A stretch of 60,020 bases of DNA, filler included, from Sluysia triapertura (lineage: Eukaryota), in assembly GCA_046118255.1 (NCBI GenBank). It is 4 parts of 4 records of this genome, joined end to end, with 100 filler letters (N's around TTAATTAATTAA, not from the genome) between each part and the next. Parts side by side here need not be neighbours in the genome. Positions count along the whole stretch, not along the records: positions 18,583 to 32,543 come from JBJNIA010012538.1; positions 32,644 to 46,151 come from JBJNIA010035927.1; 2 more parts are not named here. The stretch is one strand, 5' to 3'. The notes under the pieces are model-generated. The model ran no database searches. It was not told the origin of the DNA and saw only the letters and a program-made list of their open reading frames with translations. Below, in pieces: positions 17,906 through 46,074 of this stretch (the first letter of the stretch is position 1; every line of letters begins with the position of its first letter). The translations under genes and the position numbers were made by a program.

Positions 17906-18482
17906 TTACAAAGTCCAGAAAAAATAAATATTAATGAACGATATGAACCAAGTGATGTTGACGAATTGGAAAATTTCAATGAACTCCATTCATATGGTGA
18001 TAATAACGAACGATCAAATCGAATACGACGATTAGCAGCAGCTAGTTCTAACAACCACGATGGTATTAACAAAGAAACTATATCTCTCGTTACAAATCAA
18101 GGAGATGAATTTATCAAAATTATCAGTTCTGATTTTTGTTATGAAGAGGAAATATTAGGATCGTCATTCTTAAGTGTAAGTCAACCCAATTCAATACGCC
18201 CTTGCGCGATACATTATGTTATATCTTATGGAAGAAACTGAAACATTTCCTGATGTTAATGAAGTAATCATTGAAAATAATGATAGTCCATCATCATTTA
18301 TAAGTTGTACTTTTGAATTAAATGATATGGAATTCAATGGTTCAAATTTTGATTACGTGGATTGTGAAAGTAACTCAAGTTCAATTCCTAAGTTATGTAT
18401 TAATGGTAAAATTAATCTTGAATTTAAAGATAATTTATGCTCTGAGTGTATCTTGAAATATTGTTTTTGTGATAAGTGCTCT
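17906..18482 (+). pseudogene. Unknown acidic protein fragment ending in a Cys cluster (CSECILKYCFCDKC); frameshifted, runs into gap
   Basis: Two overlapping ORFs (17966..18241, 18216..gap) preceded by a TTATAG acceptor-like site at ~17905; no family recognised. Confidence 0.35.

Positions 18483-20043: not shown

Positions 20044-20106
<63 letters not shown>
20044..20106. repeat. (AAT)n microsatellite
   Basis: Directly visible; similar tracts at ~12606, ~25501 and ~40848. Confidence 0.95.
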
Positions 20107-22330
20107 TTAATATTAATCTAAATTGAACTAATATCAATTATAAAGTATGTTCACAAATATACTTAAAACAAATCATTCTTTATAATATTCCGAAATAGAA
20201 ATAACTCTTGTCTTTTCATGATTATTTCACAATTTTCCAGTTATTTGACATTCTCTTGTTATTTAAATTATGTAAAACCCATTATCTATCTTAATTTTTT
20301 AAATTATTATTAGCATAAAGACATTCATTTTAGTTTTCGAATCTTTATTATTTCCAAGATAATGCTTATTTAGATAAGCATTTATTAATTAATAATTAAT
20401 AATTTCGAATTGTAACCATTTAAGATAAGGAGTTATATAAATTAGGGAACTCTTTTAAGTGTTACATTCATTTTTATGCTTATTGTTTATTCATATTATC
20501 CTGAATTTTCATTAAATAAAATATGATATTATATGATATTATCTTAGATAGAATTATATCTTTTCAAAAAATCGATAATTTATTAGTTTTCTTACAATAG
20601 AAAATTAATAGAATGTTTTACTTATTCCAAATTCAAAAATTTAAATTATTAACCATCACTATTGTCATGTATCATATTTTTGTCAAGAAAATACTTCATA
20701 TATTCATGAATGAAGATGTATTGAGTCTGAAATAAACGAAATAAAATAAACGATTATATTTAAACAAACAGATAATTAATGTAAGATGGTATCACATTTC
20801 TTTGTAAATAAAAATTATTTCTATCAAAATATATTATCGGTATTTATAATTGGATGTGGCAATCCAACCTATCAGTATCGAGTTGTATTTAACATTGTTT
20901 CGATAAATTATTATTAAGTTTTACTTTTTATGTTTTATAAATAATAATACATTAATATTTATAATTTCACATTTTAATTGGTCTATATTTTGATAATAAT
21001 TACAAAACTAACTTCGATTATCTCAAAATGGAGAAACCACAGGGTACCATAAAGAAGGTCATTAAATATTTTATTTTATAATTTTATTATTGGTTTTAAC
21101 AAAGTTATTTTTTGAATTTAATTTTTGAGTAATTATTAAAAATTAATAATGGTTACAAATATATTTTAAATTGTGTTGATGTATATTTAAGATTGACTTG
21201 TACAATTGTTGATCATCAAAATTTAATAGAATTATTTGGCACTTGAAAGTAAAAATAATGATATCAATAATAATTATAATAACACTAGTGATGACAATAA
21301 TGAAAAAACAATTGTTGCAAATTATTGAGTTCTAAAATTTTATGTTGAAATGTAAGATGCATAAAATATTTCTTGCATGATTAAAAGGTTTTGAGGGGCG
21401 CAGTAAGTGTCGTATGTGCTTTGACATATGTTACTGATGCAATAAAATCATGGGTAATGTTTTGGGTCACTATAAACATTTAGTCTTCAAATATATCCAA
21501 TCGAAAGATGACTTAAATAATACTTATCAAATTTTAATTAACAATATGAAAGCAGTTCATTTTCTTACTGAAATTTTAGGTAATTCAAACATGAAAGAAT
21601 AAGACTTTGTCGTACAACAAAGAAATTAATTTGTGATTAGATAAACAAAGTTATGTAGGACAAATTGTTTTAGATTTAAGACAATATCAATTACAATTTG
21701 AATAAATAGAAAAATACAGAGAGCAATTTAATTGTAAGATTGAAATTATGATTAGTGATAGTGATAGTTATTTAAAATACACTAATGTTAATTGAGATAC
21801 TTTATTAAATGGATGTATCCAATCACAGTACCGACCATTCAATGATATAATAAGTAAATTTAAAGTGGAAAGTCCAAACATTATTCCAATCTGTCTAGTA
21901 TTAGTAAACATAATAAAGTATAATAAAAAAAGATCATTAAAAGGTATTCACAAATCGTATAAACAATGCAAGGACTGTTCTTTCAGTTCCAAATTCAGTT
22001 AGTTCCCATTAAATTTAGAAAAATCACTCTCTCAAATACTAACGACAAAAGAACAATGTAACATTGATGACAATGATTGTGATGATTCCGATTTGTATTT
22101 AATAAATGTTTGTATTACATTATTTATTTTACTTTATGATGAATTATTTTAAATTTGATACTAACATAAGTTCTATTGACATTCAAGAAATGTGATTATG
22201 TATTAAGAATGCAGCATCGATTTCTGTTATTATTTATTAATATTTAATAATTGATAGCAACACCATTATTATAAGATGAGCTTGGTATCACTCGGAGATG
22301 ATATGCAATTCATAAACAATGTAATCGCCA

Positions 22331-23964
22331 TCACTTCAAAATTGTATGTTTTGGAAAATTTATTATTTTGTGTTGTAATATTAGCTTAAAGATTTTAAAA
22401 ATTTGAAATGATAACTTGTAGGTTTTTGGATCTTTAACAAGATATGTTTTTAATGATTCAATATCGTAAAGATAAAATCGAGTTGTTTTTGATAAGGATT
22501 TTATGTTAGACTTCAGATTTTTAGGTTCGGATCTAGTAAGTAAATCAATTACGGTTATAATAAAATTTTGTACAAGGATCTGACGGATGACGGAGTGAGA
22601 TGTTATTAGGTTATGAGTCGTGTTTATTGTTAAGTATGTACATTTATATATAGGTACAGTTTGATCTTTTAAGTTGTCAAAAGACAATGACTTACGTTTC
22701 AAACTGGTTTTTGTCGTATTAATCATGTAATGATACGAAATTCTTTTTAAGAAATAATAGATTTAATTTTGGCATTTTAATTTCTAAAATAAATATAAAA
22801 ATTCTAAGTACAATACATTTATTATATGAAATGGGAATTTTAAATTTTGAGATAAAGTTTTCTCTTATTACTTCTTTGTCCAACACTACGACCAGTTGCT
22901 CCCATTGATCCATTCTTTAATTTGGTTGACTAAAATATAAATCAAAAAAGATATAGAACAAAAACTTACGTACAATATCTTATCGCAAAGAGTATAGTTC
23001 ATTAATTTGCATAAATTCACTTTGCTCATCAATTTATCTATCTCTTGATTTAGTGTTGATGACGTTTTCAATTGTTGACGATGTTGAACTCATTAATTCG
23101 TAGTAGAATATACTTGTAATGATAGATCTTAAAATCATTCGAAGCATTAATTTTTGATATTGAACTAAAGCGATGTACTGCTGTGTCTAGGAACAGTTCG
23201 ATTACATCTTTTCGCATTATAGTGCTGGCCTTTGGTCGGATTGACAGATAATAATCAATAAGTTCGTGTTTATACTCTTTTGATATATTGTGTAGGTCAC
23301 TCATGATCCGTATACTTGGGACTAAATCTTTATTGTCATAATTATCGAATTCGTCTTCGAGTACTCTCTCAATAACTAACTGCTCATTCAGGATTAGGGA
23401 TATTTGATAAACTTTTTGTTGAACTAGTTCAATGATTAAAATTTTTTGAAAATAGCATCGTATACGTCTCAGTAAGGCAAGCTGATTTTGTCAGATTTAT
23501 ACTATTAACTAAATCGATTAAATCTTTTGAACATAGTTTATTGGATCCACTATTCCCATTATTGTTCATTTCTGGTGTTGCATTATAACTTGTAATTTTA
23601 ACTTCATCATAAGCATTTGTTCTAAATGTTTCGTAGAAGAGATTATCTTCATTCTCTAGAGTACTACAAAAATTACATTGATTATGTTCGAAGACATTAG
23701 AAAGAGTAATTATTTGGATGGTAGCTTAATTGTCATTAAGATAAGATAATAGGCCATAAACATTTGAAATTTGCTTTGTTTTTTTCTTTCGATCTAAACA
23801 TAATTCATTAAACGATTAGAATCCTTTATATATTTCTTTGCCAACAAATTACTACTTGGTTTAAGAATATCATTATCAACAGTAGTACATTTTACTAAAG
23901 TTTGGATATAAAATGATTCCATAGAATTTCTAATAATGAGTCGATTCGGAGAAGTTTTTGCCAT
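22331..23964 (-). pseudogene. Long (~540 codon) intronless orphan ORF broken by stops and frameshifts
   Basis: ATG at 23964 (MAKTSPNRLIIRNSMESFY...) continues through isolated stops and frameshifts into track ORFs 23068..23304, 22886..23071, 22719..22913 and 22331..22726, which overlap end to end. No domain recognised. Confidence 0.6.
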
Positions 23965-25496
23965 GATTTAATGTGAATCAATATTCGGCGTCAAAAATTG
24001 CAAACGAAAAACAAATCTATTTGACTGTAAAGGGTCTTTTTTATTAACAAAACAAATGAGTTGTCACACTTTGCTTAATATTTTTGATTGATAAATAAAA
24101 TGTGAGTCCAATCAGAGTCTCAGAGATAATATTTAATTATTGTAAATCTGCCAAAAAAGTGAGTGATTTTTGTTTTTTGATTAAAATTCTATTTTTAGTG
24201 GTGTGATATCATTAGTCATCCAATCAGGCCTCCGAGAAAAATCGATGAGGAAAATAGGTCCTGATTGAATGATAAGTAATTTAATTTTAGTACACAAATG
24301 TGGTTGCTGAACCAACTACTATCAGTAGTACATTAATTAGATTATTTTGACAGACATTAACTACTGATAGTGGTAGATACTAGGTTAATAATAAAATTAA
24401 TGACATTAATAACAAAATAATAATATTATTATTAATGCCATTTTATTTAAAATAAACACAAACGTCTTTTGACCAATTTCTACATGATCTTGCTCTTTCT
24501 ATTTTCTTTTATTTCTGACATAAAAATTGAAAAGATAAAACGTTTGGTATACTGTGAAGGAACAACGGTAACGTGTTATACGGTGTTTAGGTTATCGTTG
24601 CTGCCTTCACCATAGAAATGAATTCTTTAAAGCTCTATTAAATTTATTTTTTGAAAATGAGAGAATGGTTTGAGCTGCAAGTAAAATAACGAATGCTGGA
24701 ATAAACTCTTGAGATTCATTCAAGGTTTATAATTGGAAATACGGTTTATACATTGAATGTAGTGGTTTAAAATGCTTGTTAATAGTTTATTTGATTTGAA
24801 AGACAATTACAAAATAAATCTTAGCGTGGTTACAATGTTATTGAAGGGTGTTGATAATGATTATGTGTAGAAACGATGGGTTTAAATTAGTGTGATTGAT
24901 CCGTGATTGTAGCGTAAATGTTTTCAGGTACTTGTTAGAGTTGTTGGATAGTGTGAATGCGTTTGTAATTTAAATATTATGTGTTATGATTGTAACTTGG
25001 TTTGAGAACATTATGAATTGTTTTTTGTTTTAATTATCGAAGTATGGTGTGAGATAAATGATTGAGAGTATTCTACGAGTTGTCTTTAAGAAGTATATAT
25101 TGTTAAATTATTATGAATGTCGAATGCTGTTTTTGGTGGATCAGTTAATGTAATTGGATAGTATGAAATGTGATTAATTTAGATGTTATGTTTTTTGTAA
25201 ACTTATTGTTGTGGTTTGAATATGTTAAGTATGATTGACACTTAAAATTGTGGGATTTTTAGAAAATATAGAGTTGATAATCGATACAATACCTATATTC
25301 AGTAAAGTTGGCATTTTACATTAAAACTTCGTAAATACGAGATTTAATGTTGTGTTTTTAACTGCACAAATAAATTTTAATATCCTATGTGAATTTATTT
25401 GTAATGTTAAATCCTATTTTGTAAAAGTTTGTAATTAAATCAAAATTTTGTGCAAAATACTCATTACTATTATAAATTTATCAGTTTTATTAAAAT

Positions 25497-25530
<34 letters not shown>

Positions 25531-25965
25531 GTGGAATTATTATTATATTACTAATATTATATTACTAATTATATTATAATATTATATTACTAACATTCAA
25601 TTAAAAAGTACAAATTAGAAAAATTGTAAATGAAAAAATTCTAAACTCGTAAATAAAATCAATGACCTCACAGTTAGAATTGTGGTGGCCAACCTAATAA
25701 CTTAAAATTTTAATTTTACACTACACATAAAAATCACACTTCATAATATTTCTTATTTTATTTTTTTCAGAAATCTTTAAAATTTTCGAAACTTTAAAAC
25801 ATTTTAACAATATTAAAATCATAGTCAGCATCTTAAGTTATCAAATGTACATTTCAAGTTCACAATTCTTCAACACTCAATCATTAATATCATTGAAAAG
25901 CATTAAATTCACAATTAATTCAAAATTAATTTTTAGTTATTTTCTGGTTATGCCACGGTAAGTGT

Positions 25966-26406
25966 TTATGGATCATTCTAAAAACATACAACAAATAAAA
26001 ATGATTTAAGTTATTAAAATTCGAATAAAAATATATAATGATTACCATTTCACACTTCATCATAGAATCGTCTGGAACTTCAATAACATAAGCAATTGTA
26101 ACGTTGTCATCATTAATGGCTAGTTTTTGTAAATAATGTTTGACTCCCAAAGTCGATAAGATGGATTCTGTTCTATGATAATGATCCACGAAGCAAGCTG
26201 AATAACCAGGAACGTGATGAAATTCAAAAATTATGTGGTAGTAGATGCAGTTCTTGCCGTGCTTGTAACATTTACCAGTTGGGGTAGTTTCATATGGGCA
26301 ATGAGTCATAGGTAAAGTTTTGTTACCGTTATAGAACAACTTGAAATGCTCTTCCTTTGAATTATTATTTGACGATTTTGTCTCTAATGTTTTTTTTATT
26401 AGTCAT
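25966..26406 (-). pseudogene. Atypical CCCH (C-x9-C-x6-C-x3-H) zinc-finger gene, copy A
   Basis: CPYETTPTGKCYKHGKNCIYYH at 26300-26235. Predicted GT..AG intron 26045-25978; the next exon stops after 3 codons. The upstream ATG at 26406 is out of frame across a homopolymer run. Confidence 0.6.
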
Positions 26407-28393
26407 GACTAATGAATTGACATCTACTATATTTGTATTAACTAATTTGTGAAAAGCTAAAAATATATTAATAGAAATTTCTGTAACTTGATCATTAACC
26501 GTTACAATTAATCTATGATTACTTTAATTTTTATTTGCGATATCATAATTCAACGAATAAACATGATTTATACTAAATTGTTTAGATGGAGTTGTATAAT
26601 TTTGTTCAAGCAAACTTTTTGTACTGATGTTTCGTACATGTACTAATTTAACATAAAAGTAATTACTTTGATAATTTAAGATGACTTAATATATAATTGT
26701 GGAATAGTGAGCAAATGTTTTAAAAGAGTTCTTAAATGTAGATTGATGGTTTTGACTGAAGGTAAAGTTTGGATGTTGAAAGCCTGTGAATTTAAAATGT
26801 TTTGAGGTATGAAAAATGGTTTAGTGAATCTGAAAGAAATAAAATGTAAAAAAGGTTTTGATAGAAAATACGTAATATGTTATAGAATGTGGTTTTATGT
26901 GTTATATGTTAAATTAAATTTGAGATATTTTGAATTAATTTTTAAGTAAATCGTTGATGATTTTCGGTATTGAATATGCGATTTTGATGTTATGAAAGTT
27001 TAGAATGTTTGCAAGTAATAACAATTATGAAATATTCTGAAGAGTAATTTTGTTATATGTTATCAAAATGTAAATGTTAAAATCTAAAAACATTTTCATA
27101 TTATTCGTATTGTAAATAATAAAATCTAAAAACATTTTTGTATTAGTTTTAAATAATAAAATTTCATAAATAATAAAAGTTTAAAAATTTTTTAATAATT
27201 AATAATCAAGGAAGTTATATTTATTGAACGGATATTAGTATCATAAATAATCTATTTGCTTATTTATTGAACGGATATTGCTAAATAATTATTTATTTTC
27301 GAAAAGGAAATTAATATTCATTTTAAAAATTTTATTAATAAACATTTAAATTTAACGAAAATCAATATCCAAAGTTCCAAGAGTATAAAAGGTATAATTT
27401 AATGATTAAAATTGATAACAAAAATATAGAAAAGTTTTGGTAATATATTTGGCGAAGAAAAGTTCGTTAGACAATTTATTCGAATCAAATACTTGATTGT
27501 TCGCTAAGTCACGATTGGAATATTCGATTGTTTATCAAGATTATAAGCGTCAGTCAGACAATTTGTTTATATACCAAGTCATAGCGTCACGTGGAACATT
27601 GAATCAATTTTTTGTCAAGTATCATTTGGCTCTTGGAACTAATCTGATTTTGATTACGTAAGCTTATATTACTTAAGTTTTTTCGACCATGATACGCGGT
27701 CTCAAAATCTCACTTAAAATCTTCATTAATTTTAGTAAAAACCCAAAGATAACCTCTGGGTCAAATTCTAACTTAAAATATAAAAAGTTTAAAATTCTAT
27801 TTTTATTATAACTGCGTTTTTATTTTTGAATCTATTGTAACTATACGAAATTTTATCTAATTTTGTTTATAATAAAATTTCCAGTTTATATTGCTTCTTA
27901 TTTCATTTATTAAAGTTGTAAAATTGCAATTAAATTTATAAATTGATTAAAATAAAAGTATTACGAAAATAAAGAGTTAGGAATAAATTATTAAGGAAAA
28001 TAACTGTAGCATAGACAAGAGTTTACTAACCTTCGATTGTGATTAAAATTATACATTAAGGGCTAAATTTATTAGAGTAAAGACATTAGGAATATAGAAA
28101 ACACGAAGAATAAATCGTTAAATAAAAGAGTTCTTAGCCTCGCACGAACAAAAGAGCTTTTTGACCTTCAACTTTGAGTATTTTAAATCCTACGTAAACT
28201 TCCTTCCAGTTAAGATAAAGCGTTTAACGTAGGCGGACCCTATCTTCTAAATTTCTTTTTATAATTGTTCGTATAGGTATAAAACCGAACAAAAATAAAA
28301 TTTTAGGATATTGGGTTTGTCACCAGTTGAAGAAAATTTAATTGTATTATACATACGATCGCAAATGAATATGCTTAAATATAATGAAGCCAG

Positions 28394-28919
28394 ATGCAAA
28401 CAAAATATAATTTCCGATCTGATCAACCGCAAAACTATCATTTTAAACCTGTTGTTTCTAATCCAAGTATAACTTCTGGGATTTACAAAATTTTGGCACA
28501 ATGTCCATCTCAGCTAAACGAATCCGGAATATATCTCAAATTTGGTGCATCTTGCCGCTATTTTCAAAATGTTTTAGAAATAAATTATGATGGCCTAAGA
28601 AATCAAATTAGTAATGAACATTTGGAAGGTTTGAATGATCTGCTCATACCTATACAAAGTAACACAATCAGCCATAACCCAAAAATCAGTAAAATTCACA
28701 TTCAAGCCATGAACAATATTGCATCTTCTAGTCAGGTTAACGAGTCAAGATTTAAAGTAATTTTTAATATTCATGTTATAAAAATATATGATCTTTATTT
28801 CTATTTATTATTAGGAGTCTAACAAGAAAATCCACGTCGTGCCGAATACAAGCAGTTTAATTCATAATCGCATAAAATTAACAATTTTTGTGCAGTGTCA
28901 CTTTAAACTCAATTTGTAA
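28394..28919 (+). pseudogene. Atypical CCCH zinc-finger gene, copy B (two ligands mutated)
   Basis: CPSQLNESGIYLKFGASCRYFQ at 28502-28567 (C>Y and H>Q are each one-nucleotide changes). Predicted GT..AG intron 28757-28814. Confidence 0.55.
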
Positions 28920-31900
28920 TAAATTTTCCTTCTTTGTCATTTTATTGAATAAAAAAGTTAATGATAAAATGTTTAAATTAAATCTTGTTAACTCGTTTGG
29001 TAAAAGGAAAATAAAAAATGTTAATTTAATTTATATTAATTTCAATCAAAGAAGTGACAATAAGATTATAACTAAAATAATTATAATTCTACAATACCCA
29101 AAAGAACTAACTATTATAAATAGCGATTTCAGACATTAAAACAGTTTTCTAAATCTATTCTAATTGTGACTTAAAAGTTGAATAGTTTAAATAACATAAT
29201 TTTATTCGTAATGTCATATACTTATCAAATCAACAAATCAAATAGAATTAGAGGATCAAAGAATTTAATTAATTAGGTTTTTTCGGATCATTTTTAAAGA
29301 AAACATATGTTGCAACAAATTATTTAATTATCTTTGCGAAAAAATTCGTTAGTCTGAAATTTTTATAAGATTAAATATTTTCCAGAAAACAATAAAGTTT
29401 TAACTTGTACAAAGTGAACAGTATTTGTAAAATTCATTACACAAAAGATTTATTAAATAACCCTCGAATTAACAGTTTTGTTGTATTAAAAACTTTGTAT
29501 TTTAATTATAACATTACGAAATATTGATTTTGTGTTAGTAAAACTTGAATTGCTAATATAAATTTTCGTTCATTAATTATTATAATTTTCCTCATATCTT
29601 TAGACGTGAACCTAACTTATGTATTTAAAAACTTCTTTCGAAATTTATAGTGATAATAAATGACTGGCACAATTATAATAAATCAAAATTATTCTAATTA
29701 AAGTTCCTTGTAAATTGTATCTCATTTAAATTACAAGAAACAAATCTCGCTATAATAACGGAATTCAATCATTCGAGCATATTGCTTCTTAATGACCTTC
29801 AATTGTAGTGAACTCCACATTTTCACAGCAAACGTTTCTTACATAAACAAAACACTAAATAAATTGCTCGATTCATAAAATGAAGTATCAATTTACATAA
29901 GTACAAATTCATATTCAATCTGGTATTGGTATTTTCGCCAATGTTGCGATTATTATCGTACTATATGAAATAAGTTTAGAGCATGAAATATGATTAGATA
30001 TATCTTTTTATTATACATTACAAACTAATTATATTTATAGGTTTTGTTTTATTTAATTTTCATATTTTATGTTACGATATGTTGAATTGCATTATATTCA
30101 GCAATATTTAAATGAAAATATTAATTTTGTTTTAGCTCGAACGACTTCATTTTTTTAATATGTTGTCCTAATATATTTAAAAATCATTTCGAGTTTCGAA
30201 ATTTTTGTGCAAGTATCAATTCAAATCCTTTGATATGTAAGGAATCGAGCTCTGATCATTCTTGTTCAATAATCAATTATGCCAAATGAAGCAGACTAGT
30301 TATCAAACTAATCAAGCTACTTTTCGAAATTTTTAAAGAAACTTACGCTATATCTATAGGTATATTTATACTTGTCATTTTACTTCTGATAACATTTTAT
30401 AATAATTTTTTTGCGTTGTTCAAATTCTTTGTTATTGATTTTGTAAATGTTTTAAAATTTGTATTTGTGAATATTTTGATTAGGTTAACTTATTTATAAA
30501 TAAATAAATATTTTAAGTTTTGTTGAATTTAAAATTTCCAATAATTTAAATATTTCTTCGCCATCACCAAACCACTAAAGCTTGCATTATCTTTCGCTGA
30601 CACATATGAGTTGGCCCTTAAGTATATAAGACCAAAAATATCATAGTGGGCTTACAAACAAGAAGTAAAACAAAACATATTAACAAAGCCTAAAATTTTC
30701 ACAGTAACAATTAAAACAAAACCTAATAATCCTCACAAACAAAGAAAGAGATGATGATGTTAATATATACAGTCGATTATGATAAATAAAGTTAAATCCC
30801 ATGATAAAGTTATGTTAATAATTAAAGTTTATGCTGAAAATAAAGAGATTTTGATGATGAAGGTTGAAGTTATTATCAAAGATGTTATTGCAATTTAAAC
30901 ATCACATGTAAATAATTTAATTTAATTTAATTTTTCAAAAAAATTATTATAAATATAATTATCAACTTATTCAGTAATAGATTTTTACAAAAATTTTAAT
31001 TATCACTTGAAATTCAAATTGTAAATGATTCAAAAAAGACATTTTAAATATGAACATTACTTCTTCCAATCATGGGTTTTTACATAAATACTTAATCGCG
31101 TTATTAAAATTAAAAGTGTAAATAATTCAATATTTTTGTCAAAAAAGATATTGTAATTAAATATATCCTATTGATTAACTGTAGAATATTAAATAATATT
31201 TCAACTATATTATGTAAGACAAAATCTATACTAATATATTTGTGTCTAATATCAAATTTACGATATTCTCATTCTATAATACAAATGTATTAGTAAATAG
31301 TTATCAAATGGCAAACAAAACATTCTTATTCTCCAGAGATGTACTTCTAACAATTTACAGCCAAACGCATCACTACAAATTTATCAATGTGCTGCAATCC
31401 TTTATTAATCTCATAATTTTCTTTTAAAATTTTTATTCTTTTTAATTCTAATATCGGCTTAAGGCTCCAAAACACTTAACTAATTCATTAAAAGAATAAT
31501 TTAATGAACGAGAAACAAGGTAACAGTAATGACATTAAATAATCAAAAGTCATTGAATAAAAAAGGATTAAATTCTACTCTGTAGATCATATTCCGGACG
31601 TATGCGATACTCTTGTGTAAATAATACAAAGGTACAAAGGTTAAATAATATTATCGAAGGTCAAAGGCCAAATATTAGATTTTAAACAAAATATTAGATT
31701 TTAAAGTTTAAATTTCAAATTAAATATATTAAAGTTTAATTGTTTAAATCCATTGGACATTTTATAATTAAATCAATTTAATTAAATAAGAATAATTATT
31801 GGAAATTTTATGAAATAATTTAATTAAATAAGAAAATTGTTGGAAATTTTATAATCAAACGTTATCCAAGTTAGTGTAATTATTGATAATATTATATTAT

Positions 31901-32543
31901 TTTATTTATTAAAAACATTACTAAAATTAATATTAATATTAAATCTATAATTATTAAAAATAATAAGCATTATTAAAATTAAAAATTAAAATTATTTGCT
32001 TCAATTTTTTGTTTTAATGCTTTCAAGGGCAGTTCTAAACAAGTATATAAGGTGACACATTTAAACATCTTCACACAAATATTTATACGATATATTCAGT
32101 TAACGTTTTATACTTTTAAAATCTTTACCGAGTGATTTTGGACAGCTTCATCTAAGTATACGTACAGTTTCTTGCGATAATTGGAAAATTTTTCGACTAC
32201 AAATTTTGCAAAGGAAGTGCTATTCTTCGTTAGTTTTTATATTTAAGTTTTTAGCAATTTATAAAATTTCCTTGCTAAAATATTACGTAAACTTCATTTT
32301 CTAATTTTCCCGCTATCATTTAGAGATAGCGCATTAAAATCCACATAAAAATTTACTTCTAGATTATATTTGAAATAATCTATCCTAATATTTTATTATT
32401 TTATTATAATTTAATTGATCACTATTGTACATTTTTCATTTTATTAATAAAGTTTGGATATTTTATTATAAATTTTCTGATATTAGTAACAGTTCCTTAG
32501 CGAATCGGAGTAAACTTATTAAAATGTTCACTTTCATTGAACC

Positions 32544-32643
32544 NNNNNNNNNNNNNNNNNNNNNNNNNNNNNNNNNNNNNNNNNNNNTTAATTAATTAAN
32601 NNNNNNNNNNNNNNNNNNNNNNNNNNNNNNNNNNNNNNNNNNN
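32544..32643. other. Artificial scaffold linker (44 N + TTAATTAATTAA + 44 N)
   Basis: Directly visible. Confidence 0.97.
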
Positions 32644-33399
32644 ATTAAATAATTAAACAAATATAAAATCTCACTTTTAAATATTAATTTCCAAATAAAA
32701 ATCGAAATAATAATGTTTTTTAAAAAATCAATAGTGATAATAATGTTCAAAATAATAATGTTTTTAAATTTAACGATAATGTTTTATATTCAAAATAATA
32801 ATAGCAATATGCATTGATCAAGTATAACAATCATTTCAGTGTATCAAGTATAGTAATCAAATCAAATTTAGCAGTCAAAGTTTTTACAATTTATTATCAT
32901 TTAATCACTCTTATTAGCATATTCATTTCGTATATTATCGTTGTTACTACCACTACTATTCTATCAGTAATGACAGTAGATGATGTATACAAATTGAAAA
33001 AATGTCATTACTGATAGTCATTTAATCAAATATGGTGTTGGCGTGTCTTCAAATGCAACTACATACACACATCTATTAAAGTAACTAACTTCATTCGATG
33101 TCCAATCAATATTATTAATTCACAATGTTTTTGGTCATTTTATTGGAAATCCAATAACACACAATTTTCCTGACAAAAATAAACCACACAGTAATAACAA
33201 AAAATAAAAAACGTTATTAAGAACCAAAAAATTAATACGATCTCAAACAATGTAACTAGTTTAAGAAATTTATTATATGATCCTATATCATAAAAATTCT
33301 TAATTTAATGATGAATATTTTTAATTTTGAAGAAACTTTTATCAGCTACTAAACACATACATCGAATGATAATTATGAACTCAAAATAAGTAATTATTT

Positions 33400-34376
33400 A
33401 AATTTAACTGATGCACAAAGTTCGAAATTACTTCACAAATGCCTTTTAGATTTAAGGAGAGTGAATGATGAATCTGATGAAGATTAAAATGGATCTTGTG
33501 AAGATATCAATATTCCAGACATTAAAAATCAAACATTAGAATCAGATACAGTCCTGTTTAAATCGTCTAACTTTGATATGAATCACATAATTCAGAATCA
33601 TAATGTTATCTACAGAGATCGCCTAGAGCTAGCTGATGTTGACTACAACACGTTTGTGTCATCATCTAACTTAGATGAAGAATTCAAACAAAAAAATAAG
33701 CTGATAAATCAATTAATTATGTTGAATATTCACATAAATAATGTTAAAAGTAATGACGGGTTGCATGATTTACAAAAAGTCAACCATATAAAAAATCAAC
33801 CAAATCTATATGTCTTGCTAACGATCAACTAAAATTATCATCATCTATGTATATCAAAGATCGAATTTCTAAGATCGAATTGGAATACCGATCAAGGTTA
33901 ATGCCGGTTTCATGGAATATGCATGAAGTTAATCTCAAATTTAGATTTTTAGCGTCTGCTGCACCACATAGAAAATTACCATGTTTAATGAATAATAATC
34001 ACTATGCCAAGCATTTAATTAGAACATTAAGAATGCAGATTGTATGAATATGAAGTCTATTTCACAATATAGCTCTATAATAAACGTCATTGACACTTTT
34101 CTACATGGTAAAGCTATAGACTGAGCTAAATATTCATCTAAGATATTTAAAAGAATATTAAAATTCCACTTATACCAACGTACATCAACAAACAGTTTAG
34201 CCTATTCAATCCAATCGTACAGTCGAATAACGAAAATAAAGATACAAATAATTCCACAAATGATAATTCGGATAAAACATCATTTTTACACGAACGTTTG
34301 GACCAATGTACTCACCATACAAATGAACTTGGAATTTGCATGAAGTTTGGGAATGAGTGTAAATATTTTCACAACG
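33400..34376 (+). pseudogene. Degenerate ORF ending in atypical CCCH finger, copy C; truncated by a repeat at 34377
   Basis: LDQCTHHTNELGICMKFGNECKYFHNV (first Cys 34307, His 34370-34372), preceded by broken ORFs 33578..33832 and 33847..34047. Start approximate. Confidence 0.55.
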
Positions 34377-35408
34377 TGTAGTGGCCAACCCCTTAACTCA
34401 AAATTAAGAATAATTCAATTAAAATAAAATCCACCACAATCACACTCAGCAACTACAATCACCACACAATTCATCACATAAAATAACAATACTCACAACT
34501 ACTACCTTAACACTTCACCAAACTACATCTGACAATAAATTAATCCATATCTGAACATTCCCAACTCAATAAACTCTTACATTCATTTCAACAACTCAAG
34601 ACACTCACTCACTAAATACCTTATCAAAATTCACAACATCAATTCATCAAACACTTCACCAACCAACTCACAACCATCACATAAACCCCATAAATCATAA
34701 ACACAAGAACATTCAAATCATACTTATAACCATTTCAGAAACAATACCATTCTACCCAAAATTTCAAGCTACAATAACATTCAAACCCTTCATCTGCAAC
34801 AATGTCCACAACAGCACGAGATATACAAAATTATTTCGCAAGTCTTTATAAAATCAATTTAACTTCAATCTTTCCAATAAATAGTTCACACCTAATGCAT
34901 AGACCTTATTCTCAGCCATAAACCTTTTCAGTAAACTTCTACTAAACTTGTTCTACATTCCCATCTTTCTTCATCACTTACATTTATATTTCTATTTTAT
35001 TACTCAATATGTCCAAGATCAAAAGATTTAAGAGAAAAAGATCTTGTAGTTTAAGAAAGATTATGTTGACAAAAAGATACAAGATATTCATGTATTTTGA
35101 ATTTATTTATTATTACCACTTTTATTATTCTTATTATAGACATTTTAGCATTATTATTACCACCACTCATTATTAGTAATTACATTATTATTAGTTCCTT
35201 ATTATTATTTCTTTATTATTATTATTGTACTTTTAATTTTACTAATGTAATATTATTATTATTACTCACAATCATCACCATTATCAACCACTACACTTTA
35301 ATAGTGATGTAATAATTATACATTAGTCAAAATCAACAATAATCAAGACATCAGACAATCGATATTATTCACATAACACCTGTATAATCATCACAGTCAG
35401 CAAGCACA

Positions 35409-35815
35409 AACCAATCAGAGTACATATCTCCCATCAGCTTTTTGACTACTCTGATTGGTTATTCAAAATTAAATCTGTCACGAAGTAATTAGTCAGACAA
35501 ATAGTAATAAAAATTTAAACACGCTGATTGGGTAACAAATTAGTAAGCACTGAATCAATTACAAGAAATCAATAAAAAGCAGCCATATTGATAATTAACA
35601 ACAACAGAGTACACAAATAAAAGCGACCATTATTAATAATAATAACACAAAAAGTAAAAATTATCAGAAGCCAATTAAAAAGAGAATTACAAAATAAAAA
35701 TTTATTGGCAGCCATTGTAATAACAAAAAAATTTTTATCCAGACATTACTTAAAAGATTATTTTGGACAGTTCTTACCAAAATTTAATAATCACGAGTGA
35801 CGGCCATTTTGTAAA
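35409..35815. promoter_or_regulatory. Cluster of CCAAT (NF-Y-like) boxes and GCCAT (YY1-like) motifs
   Basis: Perfect 14-bp inverted pair AACCAATCAGAGTA (35409-35422) / TACTCTGATTGGTT (35447-35460); CTGATTGG at ~35524; GCAGCCAT at ~35579 and ~35708; GCGACCAT at ~35623; GACGGCCATTTTG at ~35799. Confidence 0.5.
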
Positions 35816-35941
35816 AGTTAATCAAAGCACAAAACTTTAAACAAATTAAGCAGACAGACACAAGAGAAAGAAAATAAAACGGCGATATTAAACGAATAAT
35901 CGAAATATTCTGATAACCTACGTGATGGATAGTTTCAGAGA

Positions 35942-36041
35942 NNNNNNNNNNNNNNNNNNNNNNNNNNNNNNNNNNNNNNNNNNNNNNNNNNNNNNNNNNN
36001 NNNNNNNNNNNNNNNNNNNNNNNNNNNNNNNNNNNNNNNNN
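35942..36041. other. 100-N assembly gap
   Basis: Directly visible. Confidence 0.98.
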
Positions 36042-36042
36042 T

Positions 36043-37014
36043 TTAATTTTCGACACGTATGATGATGCACCAAGATGGAATAAAGCAGGAACCGGCTATG
36101 TTACAATTTTAGATGTTGTATATATTTTAGTTAAAGAAAGTCAAGTAAGATGTGAAAGTAGTTTGAGACAAGATGCATGTTCTGTTAAAGTTTTAGATTT
36201 AATTTTCGACACGTATGATGATGCACCAAGATGGAATAAAGCAGGAACCGGCTATGTTACAATTTTAGATGTTGCAAAAATTTTAGTTAGACAAAGCCAA
36301 GCAAGATACGAAGATCGCGAATGTTTAGTTTCCTCAGATTTCTACGGTATGCACCTTATAAAAGGTAGTCTCAGCGAGATGTTCAATTGTAAATATAGTG
36401 TAAATCATCTGGGTAATTCGAATGGAACATTTGGACTATTATTAGGTGAGAATTTGTATTCTAATAATTCTTCTATAAACATTTACTATGTTTTATTTTA
36501 TTGTCTTTATTCCAGATGTACATGTCAGGGGCCTGAATTCACGAAGAAGAAGATATCGCTGAGGTGTAGCCACAACAACAATTCCTATTTTTCTCAATTT
36601 TATGTAATATTAATAAATAATTCAAAGCAACGTTTTCATTTCGATAATTTAAATTTTGAACTCGAAATTTCATTATTAGATGTTTTAAAAAAAGAATTTT
36701 ATCCTAAGGCGAAACCAAGTACGGATAACATAACGATAAATGTTTATTACAAAACCTTATACTATAGTTCGATTTTCGAAAACATTACAACTGTGATTGA
36801 CCCTTTCGATAACGAAAGTCAATCAAATGAACTTGTTCTTTTCCAATCCAAAAGCTTTAAATATATCACGACACTCGGCCATTATAACAATTTAAAATCA
36901 CATTTAACAGAACTACCCATAGTAATTTCGGGAAAGTCAGATAGATTAGATTACAACCTCTTATTGATTAAGCAACCCCATCTCGAACAACCGAACGAAT
37001 GTAGGACTCGATAA
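36043..37014 (+). CDS. Orphan ORF (>320 codons, open from the gap) with an in-frame 156-bp/52-aa N-terminal repeat
   Basis: The frame is open from 36043. 'LIFDTYDDAPRWNKAGTGYVTILDV' occurs twice (36043 and 36199). Longest ORF in the window; no family recognised. Confidence 0.5.
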   Translation, partial: LIFDTYDDAPRWNKAGTGYVTILDVVYILVKESQVRCESSLRQDACSVKVLDLIFDTYDDAPRWNKAGTGYVTILDVAKILVRQSQARYEDRECLVSSDFYGMHLIKGSLSEMFNCKYSVNHLGNSNGTFGLLLGENLYSNNSSINIYYVLFYCLYSRCTCQGPEFTKKKISLRCSHNNNSYFSQFYVILINNSKQRFHFDNLNFELEISLLDVLKKEFYPKAKPSTDNITINVYYKTLYYSSIFENITTVIDPFDNESQSNELVLFQSKSFKYITTLGHYNNLKSHLTELPIVISGKSDRLDYNLLLIKQPHLEQPNECRTR

Positions 37015-38190
37015 TTCTACGCTTTACAAATTCACAAGCTAGATTTAAATCAAATTTATGCGTAAGACTTGTTAAGTTAGTAAAAAAAGGAGAGAAAAAA
37101 GTAGAACATTTCAAAGCATTTATAATAAGATTTCCTTACATCGTACTATTTGCCAAGAGTAAGTACATTGCCCATTGTTTTTTTCAAAAATTTGACAAAT
37201 AGTATTAGGTTTTATAAAAATATTAATAATTATGAACACATTGGTCCCTTGATCAATAAATAATCTTAAATTTGAGATCAGTTTAAACACAATGTAAATA
37301 ATGCTCATTATAAAAATCATTTTAATTTTCTTCATTTTCAAAAAAAAATCGTATTAGCTTCTTTATTTTAAAATCATTATTTTAATTTTTCATTAATTAT
37401 TATAAAGAATCATTGAGATCATGTTTTTATAGAATAACTATATTAAATTAAGATTACGTAGAAATAAAACAAATTCAAAATTTAGTAACAAATAACAAAT
37501 TGTATAAGTAATCATTTTAAATTGAGATTGTATAAAGATGTCATGAAATCCAAATTTATAAACATTAAACTCTACTATCATAGTTAATTAAATAATAAAA
37601 TCATGTTAAATAAAGATTAGAAGGAAATATTGTAAAATTAAAATTTAAGAGCATAATATTCTTAAAACCGAGATTTAGATAAAATAAAATCATATTAAAT
37701 TAGGATTAAATTGAGACAATCAAAATTCAATAACAATAGTAATAATAATGATGTATTAGTAATAATAACAATAATAATTCTAACAAAAGCTATAAAGTCA
37801 TTTTAGAAAGTATAAATGGCAAATATTAGATACTTGCAAATATAATACTATGCAATAAATACAAAAGTGTATGCTAGTAGTATAAAACTGCATACTCATA
37901 GTTGGTTTTTTCTATAGAAGCTCTTCGATATATAATATGCAATATGACACAACATTATTCACAATACAATTTACTATTAATAATATAATATAATTTTGGA
38001 CCGCATAACATTTGATTTTATTACAAACAAGAATTAAGCTATTGCATGGTATGCCTGATTTGGAAAAATTGATTGTTTTTGAAAGAATCGAAAAGCACAC
38101 TTAAAATATGATCATCACGGAACAAAAATGATTTTCTAATGTCGAGAGATTCTTTTAGAGTTTAGTTTCTGTTTGATTTCTGCTTCATAT

Positions 38191-40845
38191 TTATTGAATA
38201 CCTGTTTGAATTTTTTCTACCCATTCGGAAATTGTAGCTGGATTATCACTGGCTAATTTGTAAACTTTTTCATCTGTTTGTAACTAAATTATAGATAAAA
38301 TAGTTTATAAAGTAAAATTTTGTATAATGTGCATAACATTAATTATAAATTATGTACACTATTCAACGAATATGATATTTTTCCTTCTTTTAAATACACA
38401 TTTTCGGCCATAAGAATACAAATAGATTTTCCAAAAACTATAGTATTTTCAAATATATCAAAAAGGATAATCGTTTCATCTTTCTCGGAAGTGCTTTTGT
38501 ACAATTATGGAATAACAAGAATGTATCACTAAATTCAAAATATGTGTACTTGCGCGAAGAAAACTACTTTCTTGCTGTATGAGATCATATGTTGGATTCA
38601 TTTTTTAAAATTATTCATCTTTGTTATATTAGTCAATATTTTTCAATGATACTATGAAACGATTAATACAAGTTTAAATATACAAGTACATTTAAAAACA
38701 AGTATAAATACAAGTTTATAAAAACATTGTCACGGAAAATGTAAGATGTTGGAAAATAACTACTTTCGGGGAAGTAAAATAATAGTTAAAAATACTGATA
38801 TCTAAAACGAACAGAAATTTTATTCATGTAGAAAAACACAATTTACTACAAATCAAATATGTATAAACTTTTCTATCAGTCCTTTGTTATCCAATAATTT
38901 TCTGTTCCTCAAAGGCATGCTACAGATGAGCTGGGCACAAGTCTTTGATCTCGTCATCGTGAAGTCATACTTTTATCTTGGTTGGTTTATGGTAGAAACT
39001 ATCATTTTGACAATCTCCAACAGATTTTCTATGGGATTCATGTCTGGAGAGTTTTCAGGCCAAGCCATCAAATATTAAGAAAACCAAAGAAAAAATATTT
39101 TTAGATCGAACTTCAAATAGAAAAACTGATTGTAGTATTATTATTGATTGTTAGGTAAGAATTGTTTGTTTTCCAGTCAGTCCGAATAAAAATAAACTTA
39201 TAATTAAAATGTGTTAATTTAAGTGTATATTTTTATATAAAATAGTCAAATACAGTATTAATATTATATTATTTTATTTGAAATAAAGTGTTTAAATTTG
39301 TTTCATCTTTTTGAATAATAGTAAGAGGGATTGGAAATTGAGCTACCATATGACAATAAAATATATAAAATAAAAGCTCCTTGGTGACAGTTTAAAGTGT
39401 TGTATCTAACCTAGAAAAGTTAAATCGTTAAAATAAAATCTTATAAGTTAAGTTCGAACAAAGTACGATTACAGCTAAGATACATTCAGAACATAACAAG
39501 ATTTGCAGAATAATTTAGTATATAAGCACTTCTATCCTGAATAACTGGGATAAATTTTCGAATTCACACTTACAAATAAGATAAACATAATATGTAGAAT
39601 ATAAATATCACTTGCAAAATAAATTAGTAAAGGAAGTTTACATTAACATTAATTTACATCCTCGAATCTTGATTTACATTTACCTGAGTTTCAATAAAAT
39701 GTAAAGCATACATGGTCATTCACAAAACAAAATTATTGTCTGACATGCAGAGTTCATTTAAACACATTTAAATATTTATAAACCCTAACACCAAAATATT
39801 TTTTACAATTTTATCGACATACTTATAAGTGGTTCGTTCTAAATTTCTTTTAAATTCCACTCCAGCCTACTACTATATTTATAATCGAATGAATTTTCAA
39901 AATATTTTGTTATCATTAATAAATAGCAAAGTGTTAGTAGTGAACATTTATAGTTCATATCTAATAAGAAAATTTATTTATACATTATATACCCACTGTA
40001 AAAACTTATTAGTGATTTTTTATAATTAATTGTATTATCTAAATTTTAAAATATTTCAAATTGAAATAACAATTTCATTTAAGTACAAAAATTATTAACG
40101 CATTTTGTTGTAATTTTTAGTAAATACACCTTAATGAGTTAAATCTCCGATATGCAAAGAGTAAATATTTATTAAATATTTAAGACACTTACAATTCTAA
40201 ATTCAGAAATATTAAGTTGGAGAATGAGTTTGAATTATGACATAGTAGTGAAAATGCTTTGTATTCATAACATTATTGTCAGAATGCCTTAATTCTGAAT
40301 TAATGCTTATTTTTTCTGTTTCATATTTTATTGTATTTATTGTCGAGTAAATAACTATGATATTAACATTTCTAAGATATTATATCTCCTTTTATTTGAA
40401 ACAATATGAGATACTTGCCTCCGGCTGAGATTTATTTCAACCTGAATACCCAGAATATGATATTTATTTTTTATTTCGTTCACAATTAATCAGCTTGCCT
40501 GAGTCAAAGCAGAGTAATTAAAAGTATATTGTAATATAATGCATAAAAATGTACTTTATCAGATGTACAGTTATTTGATGTAATCAATGTTTATATTAAC
40601 AGAATCATCGTTGACTCCATAAAATAAAATTTAAATCAATATAATATTAATTTATTGCCAAAAAGATTTATTACTTTTTAATTTATAACTTTTAATTTTT
40701 AATTTATTTAACTTTATATTTGATTAGGCCTTCTGTTTTTGGTCACTTATTTTATTTTATCGTTTTGGTTACTTTTACAAGTTAATAATTTATGCACTTA
40801 CTAATAATTATTACGTAACTTAATTAGAATGTTAACTTATTTTAA

Positions 40846-40892
<47 letters not shown>

Positions 40893-42831: not shown

Positions 42832-42903
<72 letters not shown>

Positions 42904-45900
42904 CCTCTAAATAACCACTTTCAGGAAATCTTCTTCGGGTAATTGTCATTGTGGTTAAAATACGAACTCCTGTTATGTCTTGTAAATTGATTCTTTTTCG
43001 TGTTTTTGAATTTTCTTTGAGATCGTTATAAAATATCTTAAGGAAATATTAATTTTTCATTTTAATGATTATTTTGGACTTTTCAAGAAATGTAATTTAC
43101 AGAGATTAAATATTAAAAATATATTTTAAATCCACTATATATGTCAGACATATATAAACAAGAAAATCTATGCGCATTAAACAAAAGCACTACAAAAATA
43201 AAATTCGTAATGCTGTAATTTAGTGAAATACAAACATGTATAAATTGATGAAGGACATAAATATAATACTTACTAGGATAAACAGAAAATAATTATGGCT
43301 ACATTATACATATGGTAAAATATTAACTAGAAAAGAATGTAACATACTAACAAAGCTTAAAAAGTATATAAAAGTATGATATAACAATATATGCAATTAA
43401 AAACAAATTAAATACTTTTTATTTTATCTAAATAAAATACTTATCGATTATTTTTCTCAATTTGAATCTCATTTCTCTCAAATAACTCAAAAAGCAATAT
43501 TTTCATCTAACTGCGCATTCGAACTATTGAAGAAAATTCAGGTATTGAAAACTAAAATTCATACAATTATCTTTGTGTGATTGCATCGATAGGTAGTAGA
43601 TTTAATAAACATAAATTATGCTCAATCCTATAAATATTAATTTAGGAATTTGTTAAATTTTAATTTTATCAGAACAAAGCAGTTTTGTAAAAGTATTAAA
43701 GAATTTTATTGAATCGAATATTAAGATTAAGTATTTCTCAATGTACTATAAGCTGGAATTTTATTTTTAATACTAATGTTAAAGTAAAAAAGTATGATTT
43801 ATTATTTAAACACCTAAATTTTTTACTAACCGCATGATGAATAACATCAAGTTCAAAGTACTTCTTATGCCAATTTGGAAAAACTGGATGAGGTTTAAGT
43901 TTGTAGAGTTCTCCAGAAAAAGCGATTTCTGACCGGGCTTCAGGAGTCTGTTCGGAAGCATGAGGATTCAATGAAGATGATGCGACTCCTCTTCTGAAAA
44001 ATAACTGTTTAATTGAATTTCAAGTAGATACATAACAAAAAATATAAAAGGTAATTCACCAACCTGTCGTTGTAGTGAAAGGAATTATGATTGTAATGTG
44101 AATCAGATGTGTTATTTGATGTTTGGTGATTGGTTACAGATGAGATTTGCACATGATTTTGTGAATGACTGGAAGTTGTCTTGACATTATTTAATCCAGA
44201 AATAGATGATCCTTGGTTTGAGGAAACTGATGCTTTATTAGGTGGAGGAGGTCGACTAGGTCGCTGAATCATTTGTGATAATGGTGGGGAGGAAGTTGTG
44301 GATATACGATTACCTTGAGAGTTATGGTAATTGGATGAAGGAGACTGGTATCTTGGGATTGAATTACTACTTGCAACGGCGGTGATGGAAGTTGGCAATA
44401 CAGTCTCCAAGTTATGTGATATATCAGACTTAGATTTTGCAGTAGAAGTTGCAAGGCTTTGAGTTGAAGATGGTTCATTGAGAGATGATGCAATATTTGG
44501 ATTAGTCATGGATAACTTCGCATCAGTTTTTGTCGAGTCAATATTGTGTTCGGTATTACTTGGCATTTCATTCAATTTCCTTTGCTATACAACAAATATT
44601 ATATTATAATTAAGTAAATTCCTTGTAAATTGCATTAATTAAAAACAAAAAATGAAGTTTCACTAACAATAAGGGGACACTGTCTATCAAGTCGTCGCAA
44701 AGATGTTATTCGATGCTGCGATCTAACTGATAAACGAGTATTCATAATATCGACATGTCGATGTTCTAATCGTTTGTCAATATTTGAAACATGTTGAATA
44801 CTTTCTTTACTTTTCAAAGTACCGTCTTCTTGATCAATATACATCATTTTCTGTTCATCACTATTCAATTGACTAGCCAGCAGAATCAATTCTTTCTGCG
44901 AATCTCTACACACTTGTTGCCATATCTGAAGCCAATTTCCTGGTTCAGCGCCTTCACGAAGACCCATAATACCATAAACAGATTCAACATAACTATTATT
45001 AAAGGCTCCATGTAACACTGGATCGTAATGGCGACTGTTGCGACGTCGGTAACGAGGACAAAAATGATCGAGATCATAAACTGAACCACTACTTAAATCT
45101 TCTTCAAGAAAGTACCGCCAGAGAGATAATACTGCCATACTAGTACATGGGCGTAATATCTGCAATAATATAAATTTTATGAAATTTGTACAAAAATTGT
45201 AAATTTATCTATAAATACTTTGAATACCGGTGATATTTTGGCATTTAACAATTATGTATCTTATACTTTAATTATATTATGAAAAAAATTTCTATCAAAA
45301 ATATCGAAACTCAAAATAATAATATCACCTAGGAAAGTAAATATATCGTTTGGTAGTTTGTATTATTTTATTTGCTAATTAATAAAACTAGAAATATTAG
45401 AAATATAAATTAAATCTTAAAAATTTTAAATTAGTAACAACACTTAAATTTAATTAAATTCCATATCAATAAAATTAAATTAAATCAAACCTTTTGTGAT
45501 AAAGGAGGACAGTAATTAAAATTAAAGAAAATTGGCCATTGCTGATGGTGATCAAGTACGTATTCATAAATAGAATGTTGTTTCGTTAATTTGTCAGCAA
45601 CATCAATTATATCATCACCAATAACCGTAGAACCAGAAATAGGTACAATGGTATTGAGCAGCCATCGGAATCGATCCATCTCAGAGTCACATTTAAAATC
45701 ACTAAATCGACTACTTATATGATGATATGCCAAAAATCGAAGTAGAAATTCATTGTACTGGAATGCCATGGGAAACTGGCTAATCAGTTGATGAACAGCA
45801 TCGAGAAATTGCAAAAAAACGGGGAAGGAGTTATGAGCAGCTTGTTTGGCAGCATTGAATGATGCAGCATTAGGTAAGACTATATTTGGTTGATTCTGAG

Positions 45901-46066
45901 AATTTTCACTTGCTGCAGTATTGAAAGTAGCACTAACACCAGAAGACATACTGAGCCGAGATCTAAAGGGATGACCCATTAGCAACCATTCTTTTTCAAT
46001 AAGTGCCCAGAAACCTTCTAGAGTGCGGTAAAAAGGATCTAACATTACTTGAGTCAATGAAATTAT
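38191..46066 (-). CDS. SBF: Myotubularin-related protein 5/13 (SBF1/SBF2-like), 3' six exons: 46066-45491, 45159-44668, 44584-44064, 43993-43831, 43036-42905, 38283-38191
   Basis: 'DPFYRTLEGFWALIEKEWLLMGHPF', 'PVFLQFLDAVHQLISQFPMAFQYNEFLLRFLAYHHISSRF' and 'ILRPCTSMAVLSLWRYFLEEDLSSGSVYD' are SBF-type myotubularin/SID segments. C-terminal PH domain: 'FSGELYKL..NWHKKYFELD..INLQDI..LQTDEKVYKLAS..EWVEKIQ*'. All five introns are GT-AG with consistent phases (0,0,2,0,0). 5' exons not found. Confidence 0.93.
38860..39075 (-). mobile_element. Tc1 transposase C-terminal remnant (in last SBF intron)
   Basis: 'WPENSPDMNPIENL' and 'LICSMPLR...DNKG' are the Tc1 WPxxSPDLNPIENxW and SMPxR..KG motifs. Confidence 0.85.
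41793..41870. mobile_element. 70-bp piggyBac-type miniature element with TTAA TSDs
   Basis: TTAA|CCCTTTAACGTTCA ... TGAGAGTTAAGGGG|TTAA: imperfect TIR starting CCC, with internal palindrome TTAACTCGCTCGAGTTAA. Confidence 0.7.
42290..42620 (+). mobile_element. IS630/Tc1-superfamily transposase remnant (in last SBF intron)
   Basis: 'YHKIFDKAVSGE..', 'PIFIMNNARIHH' (DNARIH) and 'KYLPPHSRF' (YLPPYSPF). Confidence 0.7.
42833..42902. repeat. (AAT)n microsatellite directly after an SBF splice donor
   Basis: Directly visible; source of the poly-Tyr in ORF 42650..42949. Confidence 0.95.
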
Positions 46067-46074
46067 CTAAATGC

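Follow-up and report, generated by a model that had tools for sequence, protein, structure and literature searches.

We have identified three loci with related zinc fingers, called here genes A, B, and C, in a stretch of 60,020 nucleotides (nt) of DNA from Sluysia triapertura (assembly GCA_046118255.1), and this whole stretch is referred to below as the window. The reading toward which we lean, with somewhat more confidence than doubt, is that the three loci are a local and decaying cluster of host genes; namely, three old paralogues that are spliced, specific to the lineage, and equipped with a CCCH zinc finger of the type found as the third finger of Unkempt, from which we infer their descent. 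The window consists of four joined records (positions 18,583-32,543 from JBJNIA010012538.1 and 32,644-46,151 from JBJNIA010035927.1), the neighbouring parts of which possibly lie apart in the genome, and it is eukaryotic, with ~25% GC. The three fingers are as follows.

26235..26300, minus strand: finger A, a complete C-x9-C-x6-C-x3-H with all four ligands (zf-CCCH_UNK, E 0.00037)
28502..28567, plus strand: finger B, degenerate, with Cys2 changed to Tyr and His to Gln (no Pfam match)
34307..34372, plus strand: finger C, a complete C-x9-C-x6-C-x3-H (zf-CCCH_UNK, best E 2.7e-05)

All three peptides were verified at these positions and on these strands. A first-pass annotation of this DNA had described a C-x9-C-x6-C-x3-H consensus shared by the three loci, which holds for A and C but fails in B with its substituted Cys2 and His. 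Lacking two of the four zinc ligands, finger B also falls outside the definition C-X4-15-C-X4-6-C-X3-H, which as worded in PMC2267713, and repeated in PMC2478707, covers the 9-6-3 spacing of A and C. The complete pattern occurs twice in the six frames of the window (A and C) against a simulated mean of 0.015, and none of the 200 order-3 Markov-simulated windows that served as the null reached two; the pattern is indeed commoner than in simulated sequence. When each finger was used as a single query, furthermore, the other two fingers were its best non-self matches, for A, B, and C alike. The A-C and B-C pairs scored 58 and 64, whereas the simulated windows (40 per query) yielded no score above 35, 37, and 45 for the three queries, and the A-B score of 41 also exceeded the simulated maxima for the queries A (35) and B (37).

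The closest pair is B and C, which share 14 of 25 residues and also, as had been noticed at first pass, resemble each other just upstream of it (12 residues, ungapped, p 0.0004); the upstream residues of finger A have no significant similarity to either B or C. Over 25 codons, identity between the copies is 48-72% at positions 1 and 2 and falls to 16-40% at position 3, and the shared residues are encoded by differing codons at 5 of 7, 7 of 9, and 7 of 14 sites across the three pairs. Since position 3 is saturated while positions 1 and 2 are conserved, the divergence would have taken place long ago under constraint on the protein; as far as the sequences tell, therefore, A, B, and C are old paralogues diverged under protein-level constraint. 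The proposal of true paralogues thus stands, given the mutual best matches above simulated scores and this codon pattern, and the decay of B and C described below fits the birth and death that had been suggested for the family. No flank is common to the copies, and similarity among the N-terminal parts of A, B, and C was tested and found not to be significant.

Fingers A and C resemble the third finger of Unkempt in both spacing and residues. The top match of finger C in the PDB is Unkempt (5ELH_A), to the third finger of which it aligns ungapped with 9 of 22 residues identical (E 0.72), and this finger in 5ELH has the same C-x9-C-x6-C-x3-H spacing as A and C. By hand count, finger A is also identical to the 5ELH chain at 9 of 22 residues, a number equal to that between A and C. 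Thr5, Gly9, Lys13, and Gly15 are found in A and C as in the Unkempt finger, and an aromatic residue is kept at position 20. Of the Pfam families, zf-CCCH_UNK (PF25427) was the only one matched by A at E<1 and the best one for C, with B unmatched, whereas the TTP/makorin-type PF00642 had no match to the fingers at E<=10. The first-pass view of the finger as belonging to no recognised type is therefore not supported, and its description of the spacing as atypical is right insofar as the spacing is non-canonical but not insofar as it is already known from Unkempt finger 3 and lies within the published CCCH definition. The finger type itself is known and rare; the 9-6-3 spacing is absent, for example, from the 23 plant CCCH groups in the table of PMC2267713.

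Several results weigh against so close a tie to Unkempt. The PF25427 scores (17.3-20.8 bits for A and 21.9 bits for C) are below the curated cut-off of 31.1, the PDB match of finger C is weak at the E value given above, finger A found no match at E<=10 in a PDB sequence search, and the three-sequence profiles retrieved no Unkempt entry from the PDB. Also, according to 10.1101/2024.07.29.605660, Unkempt no longer binds RNA when certain residues, N143 and F149 among them, are mutated; if an offset of 29 in the numbering is inferred, these two would correspond to positions 14 and 20 of the finger. While the F149 site is Tyr in all three fingers, the N143 site is His, Phe, and Phe and never the Asn of Unkempt.

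Unkempt is described in PMC4358403 as having six tandem CCCH fingers and a RING domain, in contrast to one finger, no RING, and predicted proteins of ~90-155 residues here. Other finger spacings (6-7-3, 7-5-3, 8/9-5-3, and 12/14-5-3) gave no match in six frames of the window with stops allowed, a search that fingers split by introns or hidden in gaps would escape, and RING was found neither with one RING pattern in six frames nor in a Pfam scan of 25 frames. With one finger per locus and neither the array nor RING found in the window, A, B, and C are not Unkempt orthologues; the architecture of a gene with a single finger of this type looks undescribed. Among other CCCH types, fingers 1 and 3 of the Muscleblind-like (MBNL) proteins share the six-residue second loop, and the lead-in of finger C is similar to that of MBNL (E 1.3), but their first loop has seven residues, leaving a two-residue gap in the alignment, and they are arranged in tandem pairs. 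The TTP/TIS11 and makorin fingers, C-x7/8-C-x5-C-x3-H (PF00642), share the Cys3His ligands, a Gly two residues before Cys2, and an aromatic residue two after Cys3; both loops are, however, longer in A, B, and C, with no profile match. In the Atlas, the look-alikes were generic zf-CCCH clusters of the TTP/makorin clan (0.85 for finger A and 0.90 for finger C), and a cluster like Unkempt came at rank 17 for A (0.80).

The gene models around fingers A and B were built from open frames and predicted splice sites, as follows.

26046..26309, minus strand: main exon of gene A, 88 codons from an in-frame ATG three codons before Cys1 (frame open from 26402)
25978..26045, minus strand: predicted phase-0 intron of gene A, 68 nt, with a GTAAT donor and a T-rich acceptor (15% GC)
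25966..25977, minus strand: predicted last exon of gene A, three codons and a stop, placed by the nearest acceptor
26390..26406, minus strand: out-of-frame upstream ATG of gene A at 26406 and a run of eight A at 26397-26390, either a true lesion or an error of sequencing in the homopolymer
26457..26522, minus strand: possible upstream intron of gene A, 66 nt, with a GTAAT donor and a T-rich acceptor (21% GC), weaker than the downstream intron
28394..28756, plus strand: main exon of gene B, 121 codons, open, with ATG 36 codons before Cys1 (32% GC)
28757..28814, plus strand: predicted phase-0 intron of gene B, 58 nt, with a GTAAT donor (12% GC)
28815..28919, plus strand: predicted last exon of gene B, 34 codons and a stop (32% GC)

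The two genes are on opposite strands and face apart. Gene A, the exon of which has 34% GC (26046-26400), may be read as an intact gene of 91 codons (88 and 3 codons); its second ATG, 35 codons upstream, is one base out of frame across the run of eight A. Gene B has an open frame all along its 121 and 34 codons but is finger-dead, in that its zinc finger cannot fold. With regard to whether an intact member exists, therefore, A is readable as a complete gene, while B is finger-dead and C is without a start.

In both A and B, GTAAT occurs exactly 189 nt (63 codons) 3' of the finger in phase 0, and the stretch that it opens ends in a T-rich AG; the density of GTAAT in the window is 0.0022 per base. 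The exons flanking the predicted introns have 32-34% GC. In a coding model trained on four exons of the SBF gene described below, the predicted introns read in frame scored -0.91 (A) and -0.88 (B), and the main exon of B was the best of the six frames (0.05). The first 30 residues 3' of the finger are, moreover, alike in register between A and B (p 0.006). Taken together, the sequence favours a common predicted intron in A and B, and such introns would favour spliced host genes over the cargo of a retroelement. This interpretation is weakened by the following points. The open frame of A scored -0.09 in the coding model, behind other frames at -0.02 and -0.04, and the open frame in the last exon of B was also not the best-scoring one. 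The p value of the ungapped A-B comparison rises to 0.05 across all 63 residues after the finger, and the same residues compared with gaps allowed gave p 0.14 globally and 0.96 locally. The shared position of the intron was noticed post hoc, with the register not independently fixed, and a frame continued across either predicted intron meets no stop.

Gene C is truncated, and the features around it are as follows.

34151..34381, plus strand: open frame with finger C, 76 codons, with no in-frame ATG and a stop two codons after His
33269..34150, plus strand: decayed frame upstream of finger C, possibly part of gene C (16 stops in 370 codons up to 34378, three of them before 33830)
33890..33930, plus strand: possible remains of a fourth finger, heavily decayed and in frame with C (no Pfam match)
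34377..35090, plus strand: repeat terminus TGTRGTGGC and a stretch skewed to C over G, starting 4 nt after finger C and supplying its stop codon

The frame of C thus stops two codons past His, where the frame of B continues. The terminus after finger C is probably a mobile-element insertion, and gene C is, on this comparison, a pseudogene cut by the presumed insertion of a repeat. A Pfam scan of the decayed frame leading into finger C gave nothing except the finger and a weak match to Med9. The fourth finger remnant is borderline, its DNA score of 26.5 barely exceeding the highest value (26.2) from 20 simulated windows. A candidate for a fifth remnant, upstream of the terminus at 28325, was dismissed (p 0.28). 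Pfam also gave no support to a reading of the C-skewed stretches as remains of ORF2 (open reading frame 2) of a long interspersed nuclear element (LINE), with finger C ending its ORF1, and this reading was rejected. Assembly gaps are located at 32544-32643 and 35942-36041, the latter following the insertion in C. Next to this gap, the segments 36042-36151 and 36198-36307 form a 110-nt duplication (94%) inside an orphan frame of 323 codons, which may be an assembly artefact.

The repeat terminus recurs elsewhere in the window.

13738 (minus), 25681 (plus), 34377 (plus), and 53586 (plus): TGTRGTGGC, probable end of a repeat family, whether a long terminal repeat, a terminal inverted repeat, or a LINE start
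25681..25718, plus strand: terminus copy lying 285 nt past the stop predicted for A and oriented opposite to A
28291..28325, minus strand: more diverged terminus copy just upstream of B (83% complementary over 35 nt)

TGTRGTGGC occurs four times against 0.10 expected, with the caveat that the pattern was derived from two of the four, and a 14-mer version with three mismatches allowed finds the two source copies only. All four copies mark, exactly or nearly, the point at which C-skewed sequence (skew 0.28-0.78) begins, whereas the copy at 28291..28325, which scored 31.2 when simulation reached 25.6 at most, is followed by no C skew. The 35-nt arms at 25683 and 28325 face inward across gene A and are the only such pair around a copy. 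No target-site duplication was found near the termini or in the flanks inspected. Relative to the finger, the terminus is downstream and reversed in A, upstream and reversed in B, and directly downstream in C; since its placement differs for each copy and no flank is shared, independent insertions fit better than a common carrier. A similarity of 34377-35090 to 25480-24500 was discarded (z 5.2 with flat scoring but below z 3 with composition-aware scoring and longer spans). As a separate observation, 40895-41900 (minus), 53586-54100 (plus), and 56250-57400 (plus) are skewed repeats similar to one another (z 16-19, composition-aware), and this family has no Pfam match in any frame.

An explanation different from a host cluster is that the finger genes were accessory cargo of a mobile element, either a DNA element that tolerates introns or a large retroelement carrying them as an extra ORF, and were selected while it was active, the copies having then decayed and the finger binding RNA of the element or the host; we regard this as unlikely. 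Element remnants are abundant in the region and repeat termini adjoin all three copies, which speaks against the host cluster; the window is rich in hAT-like (47959-49130), integrase-like (2699-3031), and skewed-repeat remnants, the inward-facing arms enclose A, and saturated third positions with single-base lesions are also expected of old subfamilies of an element. Giant planarian long terminal repeat (LTR) elements such as Burro, furthermore, bear many extra domains (PMC6431247), and accessory ORFs inside elements in a flatworm context are indeed a likeness, while CCCH goes unmentioned in the passages of PMC6431247 consulted; as a difference from Burro, no gag, pol, or CCHC match is near the copies and introns are predicted. 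The predicted introns speak against a retroelement, and the copies have neither shared flanks nor a common terminus position. No match to reverse transcriptase, endonuclease, transposase, gag, pol, or CCHC was found in the 21 frames around the copies and skewed repeats, although decayed frames can escape Pfam. All three copies are, moreover, within 8.1 kb of the 60 kb, with no further finger found, for which uniform placement would give ~0.05 (calculated by hand). The first-pass annotation had left a host cluster and mobile cargo side by side, with shared flanks as the sign of the latter; with no common flank and with introns predicted, the host cluster is favoured.

Even within a host cluster, the fingers might descend from Muscleblind, TTP, or some other CCCH lineage and have acquired the spacing of Unkempt finger 3 convergently by small insertions. 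Of the nine identities, four are ligands and one is a Gly that most CCCH fingers possess, finger C has a lead-in like that of Muscleblind finger 1, whose second loop is likewise six residues long, and the Atlas look-alikes are generic; nonetheless, we give this origin little credence, because Unkempt finger 3 alone aligns ungapped, Thr5, Lys13, and Gly15 are common to A, C, and Unkempt, and the generic zf-CCCH models of Pfam are unmatched at E<1 while zf-CCCH_UNK matches two of the three fingers. It is very improbable, on the other hand, that the loci are functionless scattered duplicates of the finger-3 exon of a multi-finger Unkempt gene or the remains of one diverged Unkempt orthologue. Such pieces would have the spacing of finger 3, B and C are damaged, and further exons could hide in the two assembly gaps; nevertheless, no other tested finger spacing or RING pattern was found, A and B face apart on opposite strands, and the copies, having diverged under constraint, are no closer to one another than to the Unkempt chain. 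The Unkempt fingers are deeply conserved across animals according to PMC4358403, and R119 and Y120, which by the inferred offset would be 10-11 positions before Cys1, are not kept.

In the host cluster that we favour, each gene would encode a short N-terminus of low complexity followed by one CCCH finger, and in A and B ~63 residues would come after the finger, before the short predicted intron. In an intact member, the three Cys and one His would bind zinc, and the Tyr conserved at position 20 of the finger would stack with a base of the RNA. Fingers 1-3 of Unkempt favour A/U-rich RNA (PMC12136788) and jointly bind RNA with a dissociation constant of 5.0 uM (PMC4358403), so that a lone finger would bind weakly and need a partner, oligomerization, or the segment that follows it. 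The protein would hence bind U/A-rich single-stranded RNA weakly and, either oligomerized or together with a partner, might serve post-transcriptional control as an adaptor or modulator; this weak and partner-dependent role is proposed because the six-finger array of Unkempt is absent. The cluster would now be decaying, with A perhaps intact, B finger-dead, and C a cut pseudogene. AlphaFold2 models from three-sequence alignments had mean pLDDT (predicted local distance difference test) values of 43 and 62 and no zinc-finger match, which is too weak to decide; Foldseek and VIA found no match to these models at E<=0.001 and Z>=5, respectively. The segment of A after the finger was also considered as an RNA recognition motif (RRM) or ferredoxin-like domain but had no support and was dropped. 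More daring, and quite doubtful, is the idea that, in a flatworm lineage, Unkempt finger 3 was excised, joined to a new alpha/beta segment of 60 residues, and expanded into a sizeable, expressed, and fast-turning family of single-finger micro-proteins, or spread on an undescribed intron-bearing element, acting as RNA-binding regulators or competitors of Unkempt.

The reach of homology searches can be gauged from a conserved neighbour.

43741..46066, minus strand (46066-43741): 3' exons of an SBF/MTMR13 gene of the myotubularin family, with short AT-rich introns (Pfam E 2.9e-37)

Among the 120 of 636 matches listed for its protein, the four best named ones are from flatworms with 39-47% identity, and the host is probably a flatworm without close relatives in the protein sets searched. 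Given so low an identity for a conserved gene, empty searches for a fast-evolving one weigh little. Within the proteins of the longer length class, the finger-A exon matched none of 74 candidates at E<=1, and the finger alignment none of 18 at E<=10. Four HMMER matches at E<=0.001 among 1.84 billion representatives were rejected as repetitive proteins with additive repeats, none having the finger. Searches of NCBIfam and PHROGs and tblastn against phages were likewise unproductive, Rfam and tRNA scans were empty, and no true relative emerged. Literature searches with the C-x9-C-x6-C-x3-H string matched parts of the string only, in papers none of which was titled on CCCH proteins, and no such family appeared among the matches listed in searches on Unkempt or CCCH proteins in connection with flatworms or retroelements.

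The remainder of the window contains many decayed frames and repeats. A Cys-rich motif, C-x2-C-x10-C-x2-C-x4-C-x-C-x2-C, is duplicated at 18381-18470 (plus) and 13000-12911 (minus) with 87% identity over 103 nt; both copies have lesions, and the motif, with no Pfam match, ends an acidic orphan frame at 17906-18482. Another acidic orphan frame at 5857-6165 (minus) has a coding score of 0.28 and no Pfam match. Clusters of CCAAT boxes at 35310-35700 and 24400-24100 follow a skewed stretch and a TTA-rich tract, and are themselves followed by the orphan frames 35926-37014 (plus) and 23725-22331 (minus), which have no convincing family match. Broken frames with partial duplicates are found at ~1500-5500 and 21130-22370, including the integrase-like frame at 2699-3031 (rve, E 0.099); we presume a resemblance to the integrase and ATPase of Polinton/Maverick elements. 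The hAT-like remnant at 47959-49130 (plus) is a frameshifted transposase with a hAT-like RNase H (weak Pfam E 0.03), and a short tandem array with a period of ~26 nt is located at 46630-46718.

At present, the finding comprises three copies of a known finger type, two of them damaged, and leaves the general picture unchanged as a case of ordinary duplication and decay. The stem cells and germ line of flatworms depend centrally on post-transcriptional control. If gene A is expressed, it would offer a natural test of whether one Unkempt-type finger works outside the three-finger cluster, and would also illustrate the rise of a lineage-specific family of RNA-binding proteins among flatworms.

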